A stretch of DNA of 64,000 nt from an uncultured Oscillospiraceae bacterium (GTDB lineage: Bacteria; Bacillota; Clostridia; Oscillospirales; Oscillospiraceae), in assembly GCA_947626495.1 (NCBI GenBank), contig CANQSJ010000004.1:33069-97068 (forward strand), given 5' to 3'. A program made the position numbers and the translations under genes. The notes under the pieces are model-generated. The model did no database searches. It was not told the DNA's origin and was given only the letters and a program-made list of their open reading frames with translations. Positions 3,164-47,710 of this stretch are shown piece after piece; within the stretch, counting starts at the first letter, position 1, and each line of letters starts with the position of its first letter.

Positions 3164-4789
3164 TCAGCGAATATGCAGCTTTTTCGCGATTTTCTCCCCC
3201 TTGGGGAACAGTTTCATGTCCTCCAGCGTGATGGCCCGCAGGGCGATGGCCATCACCACATAGACGATAACGCCCGTCCCCACCGCCGCCATGAAGGGCA
3301 GCAGCAGGCTCAGCGGCCGGCCGGCGATGGAGCCGCCCATGCCGCCCATCAGCGCGCTCAGCAGATTCCACACCGCCCAGGCCGCCACGGCCATGATGGC
3401 GCAGCTGACGCCGGACCGCCCGGCGATCCGCCACAGGTTCATGGGCCGGGCCATGTGCCGGGCCATGTTGAACAGGTTCACCCCCAGCATCACCAGGTAG
3501 CAGCACAGCGTCCCCAGAGGCGCGCCGTAGATGTTGATCCGGGGATTGCCCACCAGGGCAAAGGTGACGGCTACCTTCGTCAGCCCGCCCAGCACGATGG
3601 CCACCAGGGGCAGCCGCTCGTTGCCGTTAGCCGGCAGGATGGAGTTGGTCATCAGACTCATGGTCATAAAATAGCAGGTGATGCCCAGCTCAAACAGCAG
3701 CAGCGGCCCCTGGCTCGAGGCCTCGGGATAGAGCACGTCCATGCAGGGCTCGGCAAGCACCGCCATGCCGATGGCCATGGGCAGGCACAGCAGCGTGCAC
3801 ATACGCATCGCGCTCTCGGCGGTGGCGCACACCTCCTCCCGGGCGTTGCGCACCCGGGCCGCGGCGATGGCCGGGACCACGCTGGCCAAAAACGGCACCA
3901 CGAAGGAGCTGGGGACGTTGTAGACCGTCATGGCCTTGTCATACACCCCGAACAGGGTGCTGGCCGCGATGTCGTTGTACCCGGCGGCCCGCTGGAGTTG
4001 GTTAAGGGTGATGACGCCGTCCAGCAGCTGGATCACGCTCATGACGGAGGTGGAGATGGTGATGGGGATGCCGATGCGGATGAGATCCCAGAGGATCTTC
4101 TTATAGCGCTCCGGCACATCCTTCGCCCCGGGGCCGGGCTTCACCTGATACTTGCGGTGGACCGCGATCTGCATATAGAGCATGGCGGCCAGGGAGCTGA
4201 CGGTGGTTCCCAGGATGGCGCCCGCCGCGCAGATGTCCATGCTGTAGCCGCTCTTATAAAGCCACCCGGCGCAGGCCAGGCCCACCAGCACCTTCACGCC
4301 GGTCTCGATCACCTGGCTGACGGTGGTGGGGATCATGTCCGAGTGACCCTGGGCATAGCCCCGGTAGGTCGCCGTGACGCACACCAGCAGGACGCTGGGC
4401 GCCATGATGAAGATGGACCGGGCCGCCTGTACGTCGCCGGCCATCGCCGCCATCTCCGCGGGGAAGGCCATCATCACCGCCGTTCCCACCGCGCCCAGCG
4501 CCAGGAAGCTCCAGATGCCCACCCGGAACACCCGGTAGACCTGGTTCTCCCGGTCCAGAGAATCGGACTCGGATATGAGCCGGCTCATGGCCACAGGGAA
4601 GCCTGCCGTGGAGATGGTGAGGAAGAAATTATAGATCCGGTAGGTCATGCCGAAGTGGGCATACCCGACGTTGCCTAAAATGTTCCCCAGCGGTATTTTG
4701 TATACCGCGCCCAGGATCTTCACCAGGATGATGCCCACGGTGTAGATGGCAGCTCCATGCAGAAAGTTTTGACCTTTTTTCTCGGACAT
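3164..4789 (-). CDS. MOP-superfamily polysaccharide/lipid II flippase (SpoVB/YabM/MurJ-like)
   Basis: About 540 aa, multi-TM. Start MSEKKGQNFLHGAAIYTVGIILVKILG at 4789 with AAGGAG RBS. Located upstream of mazG as in Bacillus yabM. Confidence 0.75.
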   Translation of the reverse strand: MSEKKGQNFLHGAAIYTVGIILVKILGAVYKIPLGNILGNVGYAHFGMTYRIYNFFLTISTAGFPVAMSRLISESDSLDRENQVYRVFRVGIWSFLALGAVGTAVMMAFPAEMAAMAGDVQAARSIFIMAPSVLLVCVTATYRGYAQGHSDMIPTTVSQVIETGVKVLVGLACAGWLYKSGYSMDICAAGAILGTTVSSLAAMLYMQIAVHRKYQVKPGPGAKDVPERYKKILWDLIRIGIPITISTSVMSVIQLLDGVITLNQLQRAAGYNDIAASTLFGVYDKAMTVYNVPSSFVVPFLASVVPAIAAARVRNAREEVCATAESAMRMCTLLCLPMAIGMAVLAEPCMDVLYPEASSQGPLLLFELGITCYFMTMSLMTNSILPANGNERLPLVAIVLGGLTKVAVTFALVGNPRINIYGAPLGTLCCYLVMLGVNLFNMARHMARPMNLWRIAGRSGVSCAIMAVAAWAVWNLLSALMGGMGGSIAGRPLSLLLPFMAAVGTGVIVYVVMAIALRAITLEDMKLFPKGEKIAKKLHIR

Positions 4790-20838: not shown

Positions 20839-20970
20839 CAGGATATCACGCTCCTTGTTTGCCTTCGGCCCCGTCCGAACCCTTGCGGGCCTACTAGGTT
20901 CCGTCCTGATGGCAATATTTTCGCCATGTGGCGAGGAAAAGCCTGTGCGCGTAATCTGGAGCGTCCAAAC

Positions 20971-43055: not shown

Positions 43056-43614
43056 CGCTGTCAGTGTCGTTCACGTCCCAGGACAAACGCTCCCGGACCC
43101 GCGCCTCATATTTGGCGGGATCATAGGTATACTCAGACAGCTCTTGGAGGATGTGGTACGTCTCTTTACGGACGATCTCGGCTGTCTCGGAGGGGGTCGT
43201 AGCCGCCGCCGTGTCCCTGGCCACCCGCCCGGGCAGGCCCAGAAGCATACCCCGGATGGTATATATCAGGTCCTCGGTCATCTTGGCCACGTCCTCGCTG
43301 CGGTGCATTTTGCCCTGTAGCTCCTGGGCGTTCAGCCGGGCGATCGTGGCCTTGCTGGCTTTCAGAATTGCCTCCGACTGCCGGCGGGATTCCTCGTTCT
43401 TCCGCGCGGCCTTTCGCTCGGCGTCGGTCATTCCGTCCGTGGATACCGTCTTGATATACCGCTGAACGGAATCTGCGAGCATGAGCTTTCCTTTTGCCAC
43501 GGTCGGAAAAACGCCGTCCTGAATGAGCTGCTGGACACGCCGGACACTCAGCCCAAGAACAGCCGCAAGCTCGGTGGTGCTTACCTGTGTCTCAACGCTG
43601 ACCTTTTCCGGCAT
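43045..43614 (-). CDS. terminase small subunit (Nu1-like, N-terminal HTH)
   Basis: TTELAAVLGLSVRRVQQLIQDGVFP. AAAGGAGAG RBS. 11-nt overlap with TerL. Confidence 0.65.
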   Translation of the reverse strand: MPEKVSVETQVSTTELAAVLGLSVRRVQQLIQDGVFPTVAKGKLMLADSVQRYIKTVSTDGMTDAERKAARKNEESRRQSEAILKASKATIARLNAQELQGKMHRSEDVAKMTEDLIYTIRGMLLGLPGRVARDTAAATTPSETAEIVRKETYHILQELSEYTYDPAKYEARVRERLSWDVNDTDSDDE

Positions 43615-43765
43615 GACGATCTCTCCTTTCGTGTAGTACCGGCTCACCAGAATTGCACTGGAGCACCGCCCGCATACGGTCCATAAGCCCGTCATTTTCT
43701 TATTGCGGCGTGACCCTTACCGGCTTGTGGTCATATATAGCTGAAAGGAGATACCCTCATGCCCG

Positions 43766-43980
43766 GAAGCAAAACCGGCCCGCACCTTCCCCAAAAGGGC
43801 GGGCCGAAGGGGTATGTATAAGAATTGCTTAACAACGTAGCGAAATGGGCTAATTTTTCCTCACTGACTAGGCGTTTTTCGGGGCTCAGGGAACCGCAAA
43901 AGACGGGGTCCGGCCCCGGCAGGACCCAAAATCCGGGTCGGATCGCCTGCGTGGAGGTATCAAAAGCCGCTTTCGGCTTT
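43766..43980 (-). terminator. three consecutive terminator-like hairpins upstream of terS
   Basis: Minus strand: AAAGCCG-aaag-CGGCTTT (43963-43980); GGGTCC-n10-GGACCC followed by GTCTTTTG (43893-43927); CGGCCCGC-n15-GCGGGCCG followed by GTTTTGCTT (43766-43806). Confidence 0.45.
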
Positions 43981-44274: not shown

Positions 44275-44802
44275 TCATGTGTGGGTGTATACGACGGCCC
44301 GGCTGTAGCTTTCGTGGCCCTTGGTCATCAGGTCCAGGAACTCTTCGCGGGTGAAGCCAGACAGCCTGAACACTTCTTCGGGCTTCATTCCAAGCTGCTT
44401 GCCGATGTCCTGCACTGTCTTTCCTTCATCGAGAAGTTTTTTCACGATGGCCTTCATCGGTTCCAGCAGATGCTGGCCACGGGCCCTGTTATGGGTGATG
44501 GTCCCGTAGACGTCGGCGCTTTCGTCCCCGGCGTGGTCCACGATCACCACGGGCACCTTGCCGCCCAGCTTGGTCAGCAGCGGCTCGCGGCCGGCCACCG
44601 TCCAGCGGTGGAAGCCGTCGATGATGGTGAAGTCCGGGCGTACCACGATGGGCAGCGTCCAGCCGTTGGTGAGGATGGACTGGGTCAGCAGCTTCAAATT
44701 CTCCTCGCTGACCTTGTTGGGGTTATAGTCATTGGCCGTCAGCCGCGAGCGGTCCACCCACTGCAGCGAGCCAAGAGGCGCGAACAGATCCATTTCCTTC
44801 AT
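44275..44802 (-). CDS. ParB-like nuclease-domain protein (IbrB-like)
   Basis: RLTANDYNPNKVSEENLKLLTQSILTNGWTLPIVV...IIDGFHRW. GGAGG RBS. ATGA overlap with the PAPS-reductase gene. Confidence 0.7.
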   Translation of the reverse strand: MKEMDLFAPLGSLQWVDRSRLTANDYNPNKVSEENLKLLTQSILTNGWTLPIVVRPDFTIIDGFHRWTVAGREPLLTKLGGKVPVVIVDHAGDESADVYGTITHNRARGQHLLEPMKAIVKKLLDEGKTVQDIGKQLGMKPEEVFRLSGFTREEFLDLMTKGHESYSRAVVYTHT

Positions 44803-45929
44803 GCTCTCACCTCCTTTGACGTGGAATTGTATTCGTTGAATATCTCTATCCACAGGATTCGGAGGATTCGCATTTTGGGATCGCCGTATAGCAGCGCCTC
44901 GTACATGGTCTTGTAATGCCGCTGGGTGGCGAAGCCATAGCTCTTTTTGAACAGGTTCCGCCACTTGGCCAAGTTGGCCTTGGTGTCCGGGGCTATGGTG
45001 TACCGCTCCGTGTGCAGGAAAAGAAGGTCCTTGCACATGGCGCAGTAGTCCTTGGGCGCCTCGTCGGCTTCCATCTCCCGGCGCTTCTTTGACGACCGGC
45101 GGAACATTTCGCTGTCCCAGTACAGCAGCACGAGGTAGGCGTTTGGCTCCCGCTTCTCGATCCGGGCCCAGAGGTCCGGGTTCGTCTCCGCGATCCAACG
45201 GAGGCCCTGGGTCCCGTTGTCGCCGAAGAACGCGCACAGGCGCAGGTTTTTCTTCGTGACCCCGGCTTCGTACAGCCGCATATATATCTCGGGAAATTCC
45301 AGCCCGCGCTCCTTGATGTAGAGCCACACGTCCTGGTCCTTCCAGTCGTAGATGGGATAGAACTTCCCGCCGGGGCTTTTCATGTCCGCCCGGCTCACGG
45401 CCATAAGCCGTGTCAGGGATTCCACCGTCCGCAGGCCCACCATCTGGATACCGTCAGCGAAGGCCTTGGCACAGAAGGTCTGGTAGTTCATCTGGCCGGG
45501 GTATTTCAGGTAGGGGCTGGTGAAGATGGCGTCCTTCGGGGGATCGCGTATCCACACGTCCTCCTTCCCCGGCTCCCATGTGATCCAGCTCTCCGAAGCG
45601 GAAAGGTGGTCGATCACGGATACCTGCTTGAAGGGCAGGCAAAACCAGAGGAAGGGGACGCCCACGCCGCGGAACAGCTTTTTCCACCGCTCGGCGGCGT
45701 CCACCATGGAGGGGAACAGCCCCTCCTCGTCGATGAACACCACCGTCAGCAGCTTCCCATCGATCTCGCCGGCGCGGATCAGATCGTAGGTGATGGAGGC
45801 CATGCAAAGGCTGTCCTTGCCCGAGGAAAAGCTGAGATAGACCTTGCAGCCGTTGGAGAACAGGTTCTTAATGCGGAGCTTGGCCGCCTCGAGCACGTTC
45901 AGGGTGCCCTCCCGTTTCTTCACAGGCAT
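44799..45929 (-). CDS. PAPS-reductase-family PP-loop ATPase with C-terminal DUF3440-like extension (IbrA/DndC-like)
   Basis: VYLSFSSGKDSLCM PP-loop (SGGxDS type). 376 aa. Confidence 0.8.
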   Translation of the reverse strand: MPVKKREGTLNVLEAAKLRIKNLFSNGCKVYLSFSSGKDSLCMASITYDLIRAGEIDGKLLTVVFIDEEGLFPSMVDAAERWKKLFRGVGVPFLWFCLPFKQVSVIDHLSASESWITWEPGKEDVWIRDPPKDAIFTSPYLKYPGQMNYQTFCAKAFADGIQMVGLRTVESLTRLMAVSRADMKSPGGKFYPIYDWKDQDVWLYIKERGLEFPEIYMRLYEAGVTKKNLRLCAFFGDNGTQGLRWIAETNPDLWARIEKREPNAYLVLLYWDSEMFRRSSKKRREMEADEAPKDYCAMCKDLLFLHTERYTIAPDTKANLAKWRNLFKKSYGFATQRHYKTMYEALLYGDPKMRILRILWIEIFNEYNSTSKEVRA

Positions 45930-46501
45930 ATCCGCTCACCGCACTTCGGGCAGATGATGACCCGCTCCGTCCCGGCCGGAGGTTCCGCGCCGGCCACCGG
46001 GGCCGGGGCGGCGGGCTGGGCCGCGTGATCCACGCGCTCCCGGCTGTTCACCGTCTCGACCTGGGCGGGCTCATACACGCCGTAGCTTTCCAGCTCCTCG
46101 TTGGTATCCGCGGCGGAGGAATTGAGCATGGCCAGAAGGTCCTCGTCCCATCCGGGCACGTCGATGTCGCCTTCCAGCCCCCGGATGATCTCGTCGAACA
46201 CGTTCATGTCCGTCACGCCCAGCTCGTACACCCGGTTATCGGCCAGCATCAGCTTCCGGCGCTGCTTGGCGTCCAGGCCGGCCACCACGCAGCACTCGCA
46301 GCTCTCGGCGCCCATTTCTTTCAGCGCCAAATATAGGCCGTTGCCCGCCAGTATCTCGCCGTCCTCGGCGACCACCAGGGGCTTGATCTGGCCGAACATC
46401 CGAATGCTGCGGACGTACTCTTTGATCTGCTTGTCCGTATGCCGCCGGATGTTCGTCTCGGTCATGTGCAGGTCGGCCAGCGCCTTGGTGACGATCTTCA
46501 T
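45920..46501 (-). CDS. ParB-like nuclease-domain protein with C-terminal zinc ribbon
   Basis: IRRHTDKQIKEYVRSIRMFGQIKPLVVAEDGEILAGNGLYLAL. C-terminal CPKCGERIC. Confidence 0.7.
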   Translation of the reverse strand: MKIVTKALADLHMTETNIRRHTDKQIKEYVRSIRMFGQIKPLVVAEDGEILAGNGLYLALKEMGAESCECCVVAGLDAKQRRKLMLADNRVYELGVTDMNVFDEIIRGLEGDIDVPGWDEDLLAMLNSSAADTNEELESYGVYEPAQVETVNSRERVDHAAQPAAPAPVAGAEPPAGTERVIICPKCGERICL

Positions 46502-47500
46502 TCCTGCAGCGCCCCCTTCCGCACCCGGTATCGCCGGATGAAGGAGAGGACAAGGCAGATGGCCACCACGATGGCCCGGTATTCGGCCATGGCCTGCCAG
46601 ATGCCCATGACGCCCATGGGGATGGCCACCTGCCAGAGCACTGCGGCGCCCATGTCGACCGCGAGGCCCACTTTACGCCCCCCACAGGATGTACTCGGAA
46701 TACAGGAAGCTGGACAGCGTGGACACACCCACGAAGGCCACCAGGGCCGCCTTGATCAGGTTCAGCATCGGGGAAAACTCCACCAGCGCCAGCAGCCCCG
46801 CGAACACCATGTAGATGCCAAAGAAAAGACCGCCCAGGGCAAAGGCGGCGGTGATGTTGATATGGTCCGTGCTGTCCTCGTTGGATTCGTTGTAATCCAG
46901 CAGCTCGAAGAAATAGGCGAAGATGAACGGCCCAGGCAGCAGCAGGAAGCTCTTGTAGAAGCCCACGCCCAGGTTGGCCCGGTCCAGGCCCAGAGGCGCG
47001 TCGTTCATGGCGCCGCCGGATCGGATGTAGGCCAGGATCGTGACCAGCACCATCAGCCCGTACACCATGGCCCATGAGAAATCGTCCGTCAGGACGTTCC
47101 GTATCATGCCGTATTTGAGCAGCAGGAAGATGAAGAACAGGCACACGGCGTAGGCAATGATGGTCCCGCCGGTGATGCCGATGGGCGTGTCGGCGAATAT
47201 CTCCCGGATACCGTTCATGTTGAGCCAGACCTGACCCACGCCCATGAACCCCAGGAATATCTTCACCGGCTTCGTCCTCATGTAGTGGCGCATTTCCGGG
47301 ATATACAGAACGATGATCCCGAACAGGACGCAGGCCAGGGAATTTCCCAGACCCCAGATGATCGCCGGGACCAGCCCGTTCTCATAGGTGATGGTGCGGA
47401 AATTCATCAGCGACCCGACGCCCGCCCAGGACGCGGCGATGCTGACGGCGTAATACAACAGGGGATGCGCCTTGAAGCGGCGCGTGATCTTTGAAAACAT
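46498..47500 (-). pseudogene. multi-pass membrane protein (transporter-like) split by a frameshift in a G6 tract
   Basis: ORF 46673..47500 (strong AAAAAGGAGG RBS, 8+ TM) stops right after a G6 run (plus strand C6 at 46678-46683). Removing one G joins it to frame 46498..46728, which continues with a further TM segment and ends in an ATGA overlap with the next gene. Confidence 0.5.
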
Positions 47501-47610
47501 ATCGTTTTCCTCCTTTTTTAGTGGCCCCGCGGCGGGCCGGTTGGCGACCCGGCGCCCGCCCAGGGCAGACCGACGCGCAAAGGAGAAACGCGCCGGCTGT
47601 GACCTCCTTT

Positions 47611-47645
47611 CCAAAAAAGCTGGCGGCCCCACGCGGGGCCGCCCG
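47611..47645 (-). terminator. rho-independent terminator after the late-regulator gene
   Basis: Minus strand: GGCGGCCCC-gcgt-GGGGCCGCC followed by AGCTTTTTTGG. Confidence 0.6.
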
Positions 47646-47710
47646 GCATTTCAGATTTTGCGAGCTTACCATACCATGACCGTTGTCGAAACATCAAGCA
47701 TCAGAGCGTA

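Follow-up and report, generated by a model that had tools for sequence, protein, structure and literature searches.

A phage cassette of an IbrA-type PP-loop enzyme, two ParB-fold proteins and a shortened symporter-like transporter beside the terminase genes: a possible DNA-directed function

The closest described counterparts of the gene cassette analysed here are found in the Faecalibacterium phages FP_Taranis (NC_047914, gp34-gp41) and Pioen (PP479940, orf75-78), where a RinA-like regulator, a transporter, a ParB protein, IbrA, IbrB, terS and terL follow one another. The Taranis record labels the products 'transporter membrane protein', 'ParB-like partition protein' or 'nuclease protein', and 'co-activator of prophage gene expression IbrA/IbrB'. 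A cassette of the same layout lies on the minus strand, at positions 47500-44275, of a 64,000-nt stretch of contig CANQSJ010000004.1 from an uncultured Oscillospiraceae bacterium (hereafter the window); according to the list of open reading frames (ORFs) and the sequence it encodes, in order, a membrane protein, a first ParB-fold protein (ParB-1), a PP-loop enzyme and a second, IbrB-type ParB-fold protein (ParB-2). The two phages share ~70% nucleotide identity with the window over 60% of the region. They differ from it in that the transporter gene is split in the window, and in that Taranis and Pioen carry DUF6275 and a hypothetical gene, both small, between IbrB and the packaging site; the window has a non-coding stretch of 660 nt instead. 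The locus is typical for its phage group and already annotated in FP_Taranis, while the chemistry of the cassette is functionally unsolved.

Further groups of systems serve for comparison. IbrA/IbrB pairs (COG3969, named after the ibrAB island of E. coli ECOR-9 and compared here via their phage members) resemble the window in placing an enzyme of PAPS_reduct plus a helical C-domain, which profile alignment relates to DUF3440, next to an IbrB-type ParB, and in being borne by phages and prophages; in the window clade, by contrast, Pfam DUF3440 no longer scores, and a second ParB and a transporter have been gained. In triads of actinobacteriophages, e.g. those of Heathcliff and Laroye, the three kinds of protein follow one another as in the window, directly upstream of the large terminase, with hidden Markov model (HMM) matches of 1e-40 to 1e-47 for IbrB and IbrA and of 1e-12 to 1e-21 for ParB-1. 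These triads lack the transporter, their hosts are Actinobacteria, and in Laroye a methyltransferase and one more ParB are present as well. DndB/DndC, SspD and BrxP likewise bring an enzyme of the phosphoadenosine phosphosulfate (PAPS) reductase clade of PP-loop proteins together with a ParB-superfamily protein on DNA. The defining features of DndC are a 4Fe-4S site with three Cys and a Cys dyad (PMC10853773), and in BrxP/SspD either DUF4007 or a region rich in Cys accompanies the PAPS-reductase domain (PMC12839542); the window enzyme has neither Fe-S or persulfide Cys nor a Cys-rich region, and is phage-encoded rather than part of a host defence locus. Lastly, a phage ParB is required for the DNA thymine dioxygenase 5mYOX on double-stranded DNA (PMC13229309), and DpdB works with DpdA (PMC12839542). 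Both place a ParB-fold gene beside a DNA-modifying enzyme and are proposed as a working model for the cassette, whose catalytic partner is a PP-loop ATP pyrophosphatase and not a dioxygenase (5mYOX) or a transglycosylase (DpdA). The cassette itself contains the following features:

46673..47500, minus strand: membrane protein part 1, 275 aa, ATG at 47500; the N-terminal 274 residues of a 333-aa transporter
46678..46683, minus strand: run of six G with one extra G, the frameshift, as seen in the DNA alignment with locus L003 and Taranis
46498..46671, minus strand: hydrophobic ORF of 57 aa, GTG 46671 to TGA 46498, with the C-terminal helices of the transporter; aligns to residues ~276-333 of homologue P0121 and Taranis gp35
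45920..46501, minus strand: ParB-1, 193 aa; N-domain with ParB/Srx fold, of a kind that also occurs fused to phage DNA methyltransferases, and a C-terminal CPxCG knuckle
44799..45929, minus strand: IbrA-type PP-loop ATP pyrophosphatase, 376 aa; PAPS_reduct and a divergent, DUF3440-like helical C-domain (~226-376)
44275..44802, minus strand: ParB-2, IbrB-type, 175 aa; ParB/Srx N-domain followed by a helix-turn-helix

The lack of a conserved Cys, the pairing with ParB genes, the recurrence beside the terminase in unrelated lineages and, in one clade, the presence of a symporter and a second PP-loop enzyme suggest, at the level of sequence, a DNA-directed function of the IbrA-type family. Despite its usual label, the enzyme is almost certainly not a sulfur-metabolism gene.

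The enzyme carries the motif SFSSGKDS at residues 33-40 and scores 43.1 bits against Pfam PAPS_reduct (PF01507, cut-off 22.5), in agreement with the initial annotation of this DNA, which had described a 376-aa protein with this motif and a long C-terminal extension. Its family counts 1,939 matches at 90% clustering and 1,124 representatives at 50% clustering. Conservation was assessed in 51 diverse relatives of 22-49% identity, among which 15 columns are invariant (S35, K38, S40, D67, E69, W126, G165, E170, S171, R174, D200, W202, Y216, R230 and R260) and no Cys is. All PP-loop and phosphate-binding residues of the PAPS-reductase/CysD clade are kept, as SxSGGKDS, DEE and GxRxxESxxR. PAPS_reduct is matched by 51/51 relatives and DUF3440 by 29/51; for the window enzyme and five clade-mates no direct Pfam match to DUF3440 was obtained at E<0.01, but alignment of the C-domain of the window clade with that of the DUF3440-positive clade gave 99.5% in hhalign (E 4e-22). 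By these comparisons the enzyme is a divergent IbrA, made up of PAPS_reduct and a probable remote homologue of DUF3440. The HMM searches proposed beforehand thus returned PAPS_reduct and ParB_N directly, and DUF3440 in the relatives rather than in the window protein. E. coli IbrA was not found by name among the best 120 relatives of IbrA from Streptococcus phage CHPC1148, all of which are called 'DUF3440 domain-containing protein' and none of which is from E. coli. Long proteins that join the IbrA domain to portal, baseplate J, N6-methylase or SSF segments were disregarded as apparent chimeras among metagenome contigs.

The AlphaFold2 (AF2) model of the enzyme (pLDDT 91.8) shows the PP-loop fold. 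Foldseek against the PDB returned generic PP-loop enzymes only, i.e. NcsA, TtuA, TilS, PAPS/APS reductases, FAD synthase, CysD, LarE and GMP synthase, with a best E of ~1e-5 and a TMq of 0.3-0.37. Neither a close solved relative nor a DndC or SspD chain was among the top 50 matches, and the C-domain was left unmatched there. The best match among viral models is a COG3969 protein (TMq 0.61). A sequence search of the PDB with the three soluble cassette proteins gave marginal matches only (CysH, local, 0.004; Spo0J, 0.004-0.005; a designed helix-turn-helix repeat).

These data bear directly on the two sulfur-based explanations. The standard label of the family, 'phosphoadenosine phosphosulfate reductase' in the PHROG category 'moron, auxiliary metabolic gene', and the literature view of viral cysH (bioRxiv 10.1101/2021.01.05.425418; PMC12323421; PMC11318856) would make the protein a phage CysH that boosts assimilatory sulfate reduction in the host, and CysH does share Pfam PAPS_reduct and the PP-loop fold with it. 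We regard this as scarcely credible. The CysH/PAPS-reductase models of NCBIfam score the enzyme at 16-21 bits where 154-254 are called for (NF002537, 21.4 vs 154; TIGR02057, 15.9 vs 254; TIGR02055, 17.6 vs 235), and the best local NCBIfam matches are CysD; the grouping with CysH that had been named beforehand as counter-evidence was not observed. Moreover, the ECGLH-type motif with the catalytic Cys is not in the enzyme sequence, no other Cys is conserved, an extra DUF3440-like C-terminal domain is present, pairing with ParB genes is obligate, and the family is phage- and prophage-borne. Phosphorothioation in the manner of Dnd, Ssp or BREX-4, in which the enzyme would stand for DndC/SspD and a ParB for DndB, had been considered in the initial annotation on the strength of domain logic. 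The combination of a PAPS-reductase-like PP-loop enzyme with a ParB-fold protein is indeed shared, and the only PADLOC match of the enzyme is BrxP, a weak one (21.6 bits, E 1.4e-5, residues 4-216). Still, this explanation is very improbable, as the family has no invariant Cys to set against the 4Fe-4S site and dyad of DndC or the Cys-rich region of BrxP/SspD. The DndC and SspD models of NCBIfam and PADLOC did not match the enzyme, the DndB/DGQHR models of the same collections matched neither ParB at E<=0.01, and neither a cysteine desulfurase nor DndD/E, SspB/C or BREX partner genes were detected in the six-gene stretch that runs from the RinA-like regulator to terS. Because no Cys is invariant and the CysH, DndC, DndB and SspD models are unmatched, sulfate assimilation and phosphorothioation both appear poorly supported, and the proposed thio-type logic does not hold up.

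The three soluble cassette proteins match phrog_2302 (5e-83), phrog_2159 (9e-68) and phrog_620 (3e-43). The last of these is the match of ParB-1, which also finds phrog_498, a ParB-methyltransferase family (2e-28), and MTase_II of PADLOC (3e-15); Laroye gp5 and Heathcliff gp1 look like its orthologues. Across 102 homologues ADN is conserved and box II is degenerate (AGNGLY). The C-terminal CPxCG knuckle is kept in at least 95% of them, but a second conserved Cys pair was not found, so that the zinc ribbon described earlier reduces to a single conserved knuckle. ParB-2 matches phrog_2159 and scores just above the cut-off of Pfam ParB_N (26.8 vs 26.3); it contains IIDGFHRW, which bears out the earlier description of a second ParB with DGFHRW and an ATGA overlap. 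The motifs NPN, DGxHR and NRARGxH are kept in at least 95% of its 114 homologues. Its N-terminal part aligns to the Spo0J N-domain and its C-terminal segment to the ParB helix-turn-helix, and a weak similarity to the Srx-fold free serine kinase was seen as well. Matches to the annotated IbrB of CHPC1148 (E 8.5e-54), to Laroye gp7 and to Heathcliff gp5 range from 1e-40 to 1e-54. Together with the DUF3440 relatives and the C-domain homology of the enzyme, the CHPC1148 match supports the earlier assignment of the last two genes as an IbrA/IbrB-type pair. The canonical partition ParB model TIGR00180 scores ParB-2 at 25.8 against a cut-off of 58.45 and leaves ParB-1 unmatched.

Conservation of the cassette was followed in three sets of loci, counting only those with adequate flanks: close (IMG/VR and GenBank), diverse (IbrA 32-75% identical) and remote (DUF3440-positive). 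All four genes occur together in 115/118 close and diverse loci. In the close set they are present in 69/69, with the order kept and the position between a RinA-like regulator and terS/terL; in the diverse set they are present in 46/49. Remote loci show the four genes in 0/9, being without the transporter. The IbrA-IbrB pair is found in 69/69, 48/49 and 9/9 loci, respectively, and the linkage to ParB that had been put forward for survey is therefore conserved across phages. A second PP-loop paralogue of ~260 aa lies between transporter and ParB-1 in 25/49 diverse loci (e.g. L007, L103 at 3620-4405, and L131) and is lacking in the window; it carries WSGGKDS and GRRxxDGN, has no invariant Cys and matches Pfam PAPS_reduct at 4e-11. 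Amino-acid identity to the close IMG/VR relatives amounts to 80-90% for IbrB, 71-83% for IbrA and 58-71% for the terminase large subunit, IbrA and IbrB being the best conserved proteins of the region. Phages of the close clade have gut Oscillospiraceae and further Clostridia as hosts. By tblastn the enzyme was found in 206 phage records. Homologues lie near the genome ends in Bacillus and Microbacterium phages, those of the latter being annotated 'adenylyltransferase'. In Mycobacterium phage Heathcliff (L166, 1-2717) a ParB (gp1), a PAPS reductase (gp4) and an IbrB-type ParB (gp5) stand directly before terL, with no annotated small terminase in the interval from ParB to terL. Arthrobacter phage Laroye (L167, 3276-5544) has a ParB-1-type protein (gp5), a PAPS reductase (gp6) and an IbrB-type protein (gp7), followed by a methyltransferase, a helix-turn-helix protein and terL. 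In CHPC1148, IbrA and IbrB are located in the early region, far from the terminase. A GpA-type terL was not found within 5 kb of the remote IbrA-IbrB pairs, in a search confined to this terminase type.

The first gene of the cassette had been described as transporter-like, which is borne out by modelling and by its longer relatives. All homologues of the membrane protein measure ~333 aa, including the 98%-identical P0121, whose AF2 model (pLDDT 88.8, pTM 0.87) is best overlaid by Foldseek on human CHT1, a member of the sodium:solute symporter (SSS) family (TMq 0.69), followed by other LeuT-fold/APC carriers. At the same cassette position, related phages encode longer proteins of ~450-580 aa. 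Two of these (502 and 578 aa) match Pfam SSF at 5e-23 and 3e-26 and NCBIfam TIGR00813 at 1e-32, with weaker matches of the longer homologues to PanF and PutP; Pfam and NCBIfam searches with the 275-aa window protein and with P0121 gave no match. Based on the LeuT-fold model match and the SSF/TIGR00813 matches of the longer positional homologues, the membrane protein is best described as a shortened transporter of the SSS/SLC5 family with a predicted LeuT fold. In the window its frame is broken: the GTG start of the 57-aa ORF lies 1 nt past the stop of the 275-aa ORF, and its own stop overlaps the ParB-1 start (ATGA). Identical gene calls of 275 and 57 aa are present in an independent 55-kb ENA assembly that carries an identical enzyme; in all, the window enzyme was found on nine contigs with similar neighbours. 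A sequencing error is less likely in view of this identical split, and the frameshift is probably real in this phage lineage. With the frame restored, the transporter stop overlaps the ParB-1 start, and all cassette genes are therefore coupled. The earlier account of four co-directional, translationally coupled genes is exact in coordinates, strand and overlaps (10 nt between ParB-1 and enzyme, ATGA between enzyme and ParB-2), but it missed the split of the membrane gene and the 57-aa ORF.

Upstream of the cassette, the sequence holds a predicted promoter and a structured 5' leader, composed of AAAATC, hairpin P1, a U run, the element GGAAAGGAGG, hairpin P2, a variable hairpin and a ribosome-binding site (RBS):

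47668..47697, minus strand: predicted sigma-A-type promoter; -35 TTGATG (47697-47692), 18-nt spacer, extended -10 TGgTATGGT (47676-47668)
47501..47667, minus strand: structured 5' leader
47643-47622, minus strand: hairpin P1, 9 G-C pairs, followed by a U run at 47618-47613
47612-47603, minus strand: leader element GGAAAGGAGG, between the P1 U run and P2
47597-47569, minus strand: hairpin P2 with the invariant loop UUUCUCCUUUG, complementary to GGAAAGGAGG and to the RBS
47514-47509, minus strand: RBS AGGAGG at the leader end, before the ATG of the membrane protein

The promoter begins 14 nt past the stop codon of the RinA-like gene (47713-47711). Across seven related loci its hexamers are conserved and the spacer is variable; a simple promoter scanner did not flag it. 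P1 lies ~25 nt downstream of the likely transcription start. RNAalifold on 16 non-redundant leaders predicted 20 pairs, 12 of them with compensatory changes, whereas Rfam left the leader (and likewise the spacer between ParB-2 and terS) unmatched even at E<=10. A leader peptide was considered and rejected; the short ORFs of L003 and L006 are in different frames and the window leader has no start codon, which argues for conservation at the RNA level. The leader could serve as an attenuator or a translational switch, or it could be a short RNA in its own right.

Towards the terminase genes, the 660-nt spacer contains three hairpins, each followed by a T run. The flanking features on both sides are:

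48112-47711, minus strand: RinA-like late regulator (phrog_36, 2e-7)
~43977-43962, minus strand: hairpin and T run, from sequence and fold
43918-43904, minus strand: hairpin and T run, from sequence and fold
~43806-43771, minus strand: hairpin and T run, from sequence and fold
43836..43931, minus strand: 96-nt block conserved in six loci, presumptive pac/cos
43614-43045, minus strand: small terminase terS (phrog_57, 8e-34)
43055-41094, minus strand: large-terminase ORF; orthologues in near-identical contigs are GpA-type, with GpA ATPase and nuclease domains

The cassette is thereby flanked by the RinA-like late regulator on one side and terS on the other. Terminator-like sites number 12 in the region against 4.9 +/- 2.7 in shuffles, and of the downstream hairpins only the middle one (43918-43904) satisfied the terminator scanner. 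The genome of Pioen, a phage inducible from Faecalibacterium sp. HTF-238, was rearranged by PhageTerm, from virion reads, to start at its predicted pac/cos site (PMC11792537). Both ends of the linear Pioen record lie within the conserved block and adjoin each other in Taranis; the equivalent of the Pioen terminus is ~43895|43894. The middle hairpin, located just 5' of this terminus, therefore appears to abut the packaging start; the block is the presumptive packaging start site, which would put the cassette at the terminal part of the packaged genome. For Pioen, PhageTerm gave headful packaging (PMC11792537), although the terminase is of the GpA (lambda) type. The initial annotation had viewed the cassette as insulated by terminators. 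The upstream hairpin (47611-47645, i.e. P1) and three downstream ones do exist, but the former lies, as judged from the sequence, within the promoter-leader region of the cassette itself and is not simply an insulator, and the middle one of the latter stands beside the packaging site. As a separate observation, an inverted repeat of 26 nt (43605-43630 / 43743-43768; 81% complementary, arms 112 nt apart) pairs an upstream segment with the RBS and start codon of terS, and may provide translational control of this gene.

Based on these data, the cassette is tentatively read as encoding a ParB-guided, ATP-dependent adenylyl-transfer enzyme that would modify phage DNA with an imported solute; we place this reading ahead of the others, at a probability somewhat short of even. 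The DNA-directed part draws on the catalytic PP-loop enzyme without conserved Cys, the obligate partner with ParB and helix-turn-helix domains, the methyltransferase-type ParB-1 and the recurrent position on the packaging side, and the nearest solved folds include the nucleic-acid-modifying NcsA, TtuA and TilS as well as PAPS/APS reductases, CysD and FAD synthase, which handle phosphate or sulfate. That the added group would stem from an imported solute is suggested by the symporter and the optional second PP-loop enzyme. In such a scheme, IbrB (an NTP-binding ParB fold with a helix-turn-helix) and ParB-1 would load or activate IbrA on double-stranded phage DNA, in analogy to the ParB partners of the phage thymine dioxygenases and of DpdA. 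IbrA would use ATP to adenylylate a DNA oxygen, be it on a phosphate (of the backbone or a terminus) or on the carbonyl of a base, and a non-sulfur nucleophile would then displace AMP. The precursor of this nucleophile would be imported by the symporter and, in the fuller cassettes, may be processed by the 260-aa PP-loop paralogue that the window phage lacks. The mark left in this way would protect or label the phage DNA around packaging; the last-packaged-end position, together with a host-type promoter and a structured leader, would also permit expression immediately on entry. More specifically, the product may be a non-sulfur covalent DNA mark that has so far not been described, in which an imported amine or alcohol displaces AMP from an adenylylated phosphate or base carbonyl to give, e.g., a phosphoramidate or phosphotriester in the backbone, or an aminated base; the conserved leader could then be a ligand-sensing RNA for the imported substrate. 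This is a speculative proposal that we hold to be rather unlikely in its particulars.

Several observations weigh against this reading. No solved structure or characterised enzyme is close to IbrA, as reflected in the Foldseek values above. The transporter is frameshifted in this lineage and absent from the remote IbrAB pairs and the actinobacteriophage triads, so that an imported substrate cannot be essential to the core chemistry. The CHPC1148 pair sits in the early region and not beside the terminase. ParB/Srx-fold proteins can be kinases or nucleases on non-DNA substrates, and ParB-2 shows weak serine-kinase matches. No DNA modification is on record for any phage carrying the cassette, and a functional study of phage IbrAB was not found in the literature. 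Sandt et al. reportedly showed in 2002 that E. coli IbrAB activates the prophage eib genes, and to our knowledge this kind of transcriptional phenotype is the only experimental one known for the family.

The last point leads to a regulatory explanation, in which IbrB as an NTP switch loads near the late/packaging region and acts as co-activator or anti-silencer of late genes, with IbrA supplying or consuming a nucleotide cofactor and no mark being left on the DNA. The co-activator labels in the Taranis and CHPC1148 records, the location between the RinA-like late activator and terS, and the helix-turn-helix and intact NTP-binding motifs of IbrB are in line with it, and VirB and KorB are examples of ParB-family proteins that act as transcriptional regulators. 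It leaves unexplained, however, why a fully conserved PP-loop catalytic site is constantly coupled to ParB and what brings a solute transporter and another PP-loop enzyme into the cassette, and the RinA-like regulator is already there as a separate gene; we therefore rate it as rather unlikely. The transporter at the cassette head would find its place if IbrA adenylylated an imported solute or nucleotide for counter-defence or supply, its ParB/Srx partners being kinases or NTPases on that molecule. Such small-molecule chemistry agrees with the CysD matches in NCBIfam, with CysD, FAD synthase and GMP synthase among the Foldseek matches, with the 'adenylyltransferase' annotation in Microbacterium phages and with the weak similarity of ParB-2 to the Srx-fold free serine kinase. 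It is unlikely given that the IbrB helix-turn-helix aligns to the DNA-binding region of ParB, that the ParB-1 domain is of the type fused to DNA methyltransferases, and that in most lineages the core pair or triad occurs without the transporter. A further alternative makes the cassette a packaging accessory, part of that machinery and not a modification system: its ParB-fold proteins would recognise DNA close to pac/cos or nick it there, and IbrA would act on DNA ends or on the terminase. All Taranis-like loci have the cassette immediately upstream of the packaging site and terS/terL, the triad precedes terL in Heathcliff and Laroye (in Heathcliff with no annotated small terminase in between), and in Bacillus and Microbacterium phages the homologues are situated towards the genome ends. 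Yet the phage already has its own terS, and its terL orthologues carry both GpA ATPase and nuclease domains; the CHPC1148 pair is far from the terminase, and the remote pairs showed no GpA-type terL within the 5 kb searched for this type. A packaging role is accordingly considered distinctly unlikely.

Apart from the cassette, the window contains a match to the RT-18 RNA (RF03021) at 20851-20933 on the minus strand (61.5 bits against a gathering score of 41.3). As Taranis/Pioen-like Faecalibacterium prophages are reported to be rich in diversity-generating retroelements (PMC11792537), such an element may be present near this site.

IbrA-type 'PAPS reductases' are among the most reported auxiliary metabolic genes of phages, especially in the human gut (bioRxiv 10.1101/2021.01.05.425418), and such phage genes are routinely taken as sulfur metabolism (PMC12323421, PMC11318856). 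The value of the present locus lies in what it indicates at the level of the family, namely a chemistry that is not that of sulfur, a terminase-side triad, a transporter in one clade and an unclassified leader RNA. If the DNA-directed reading is true, virome-based estimates of viral sulfur cycling would be inflated, and should a covalent DNA mark indeed be installed, the abundant 'cysH' genes of gut viromes would instead represent a DNA-modification system. This system would be widespread in phages and tractable, with carriers including the inducible Pioen, S. thermophilus phages and cluster-B mycobacteriophages.

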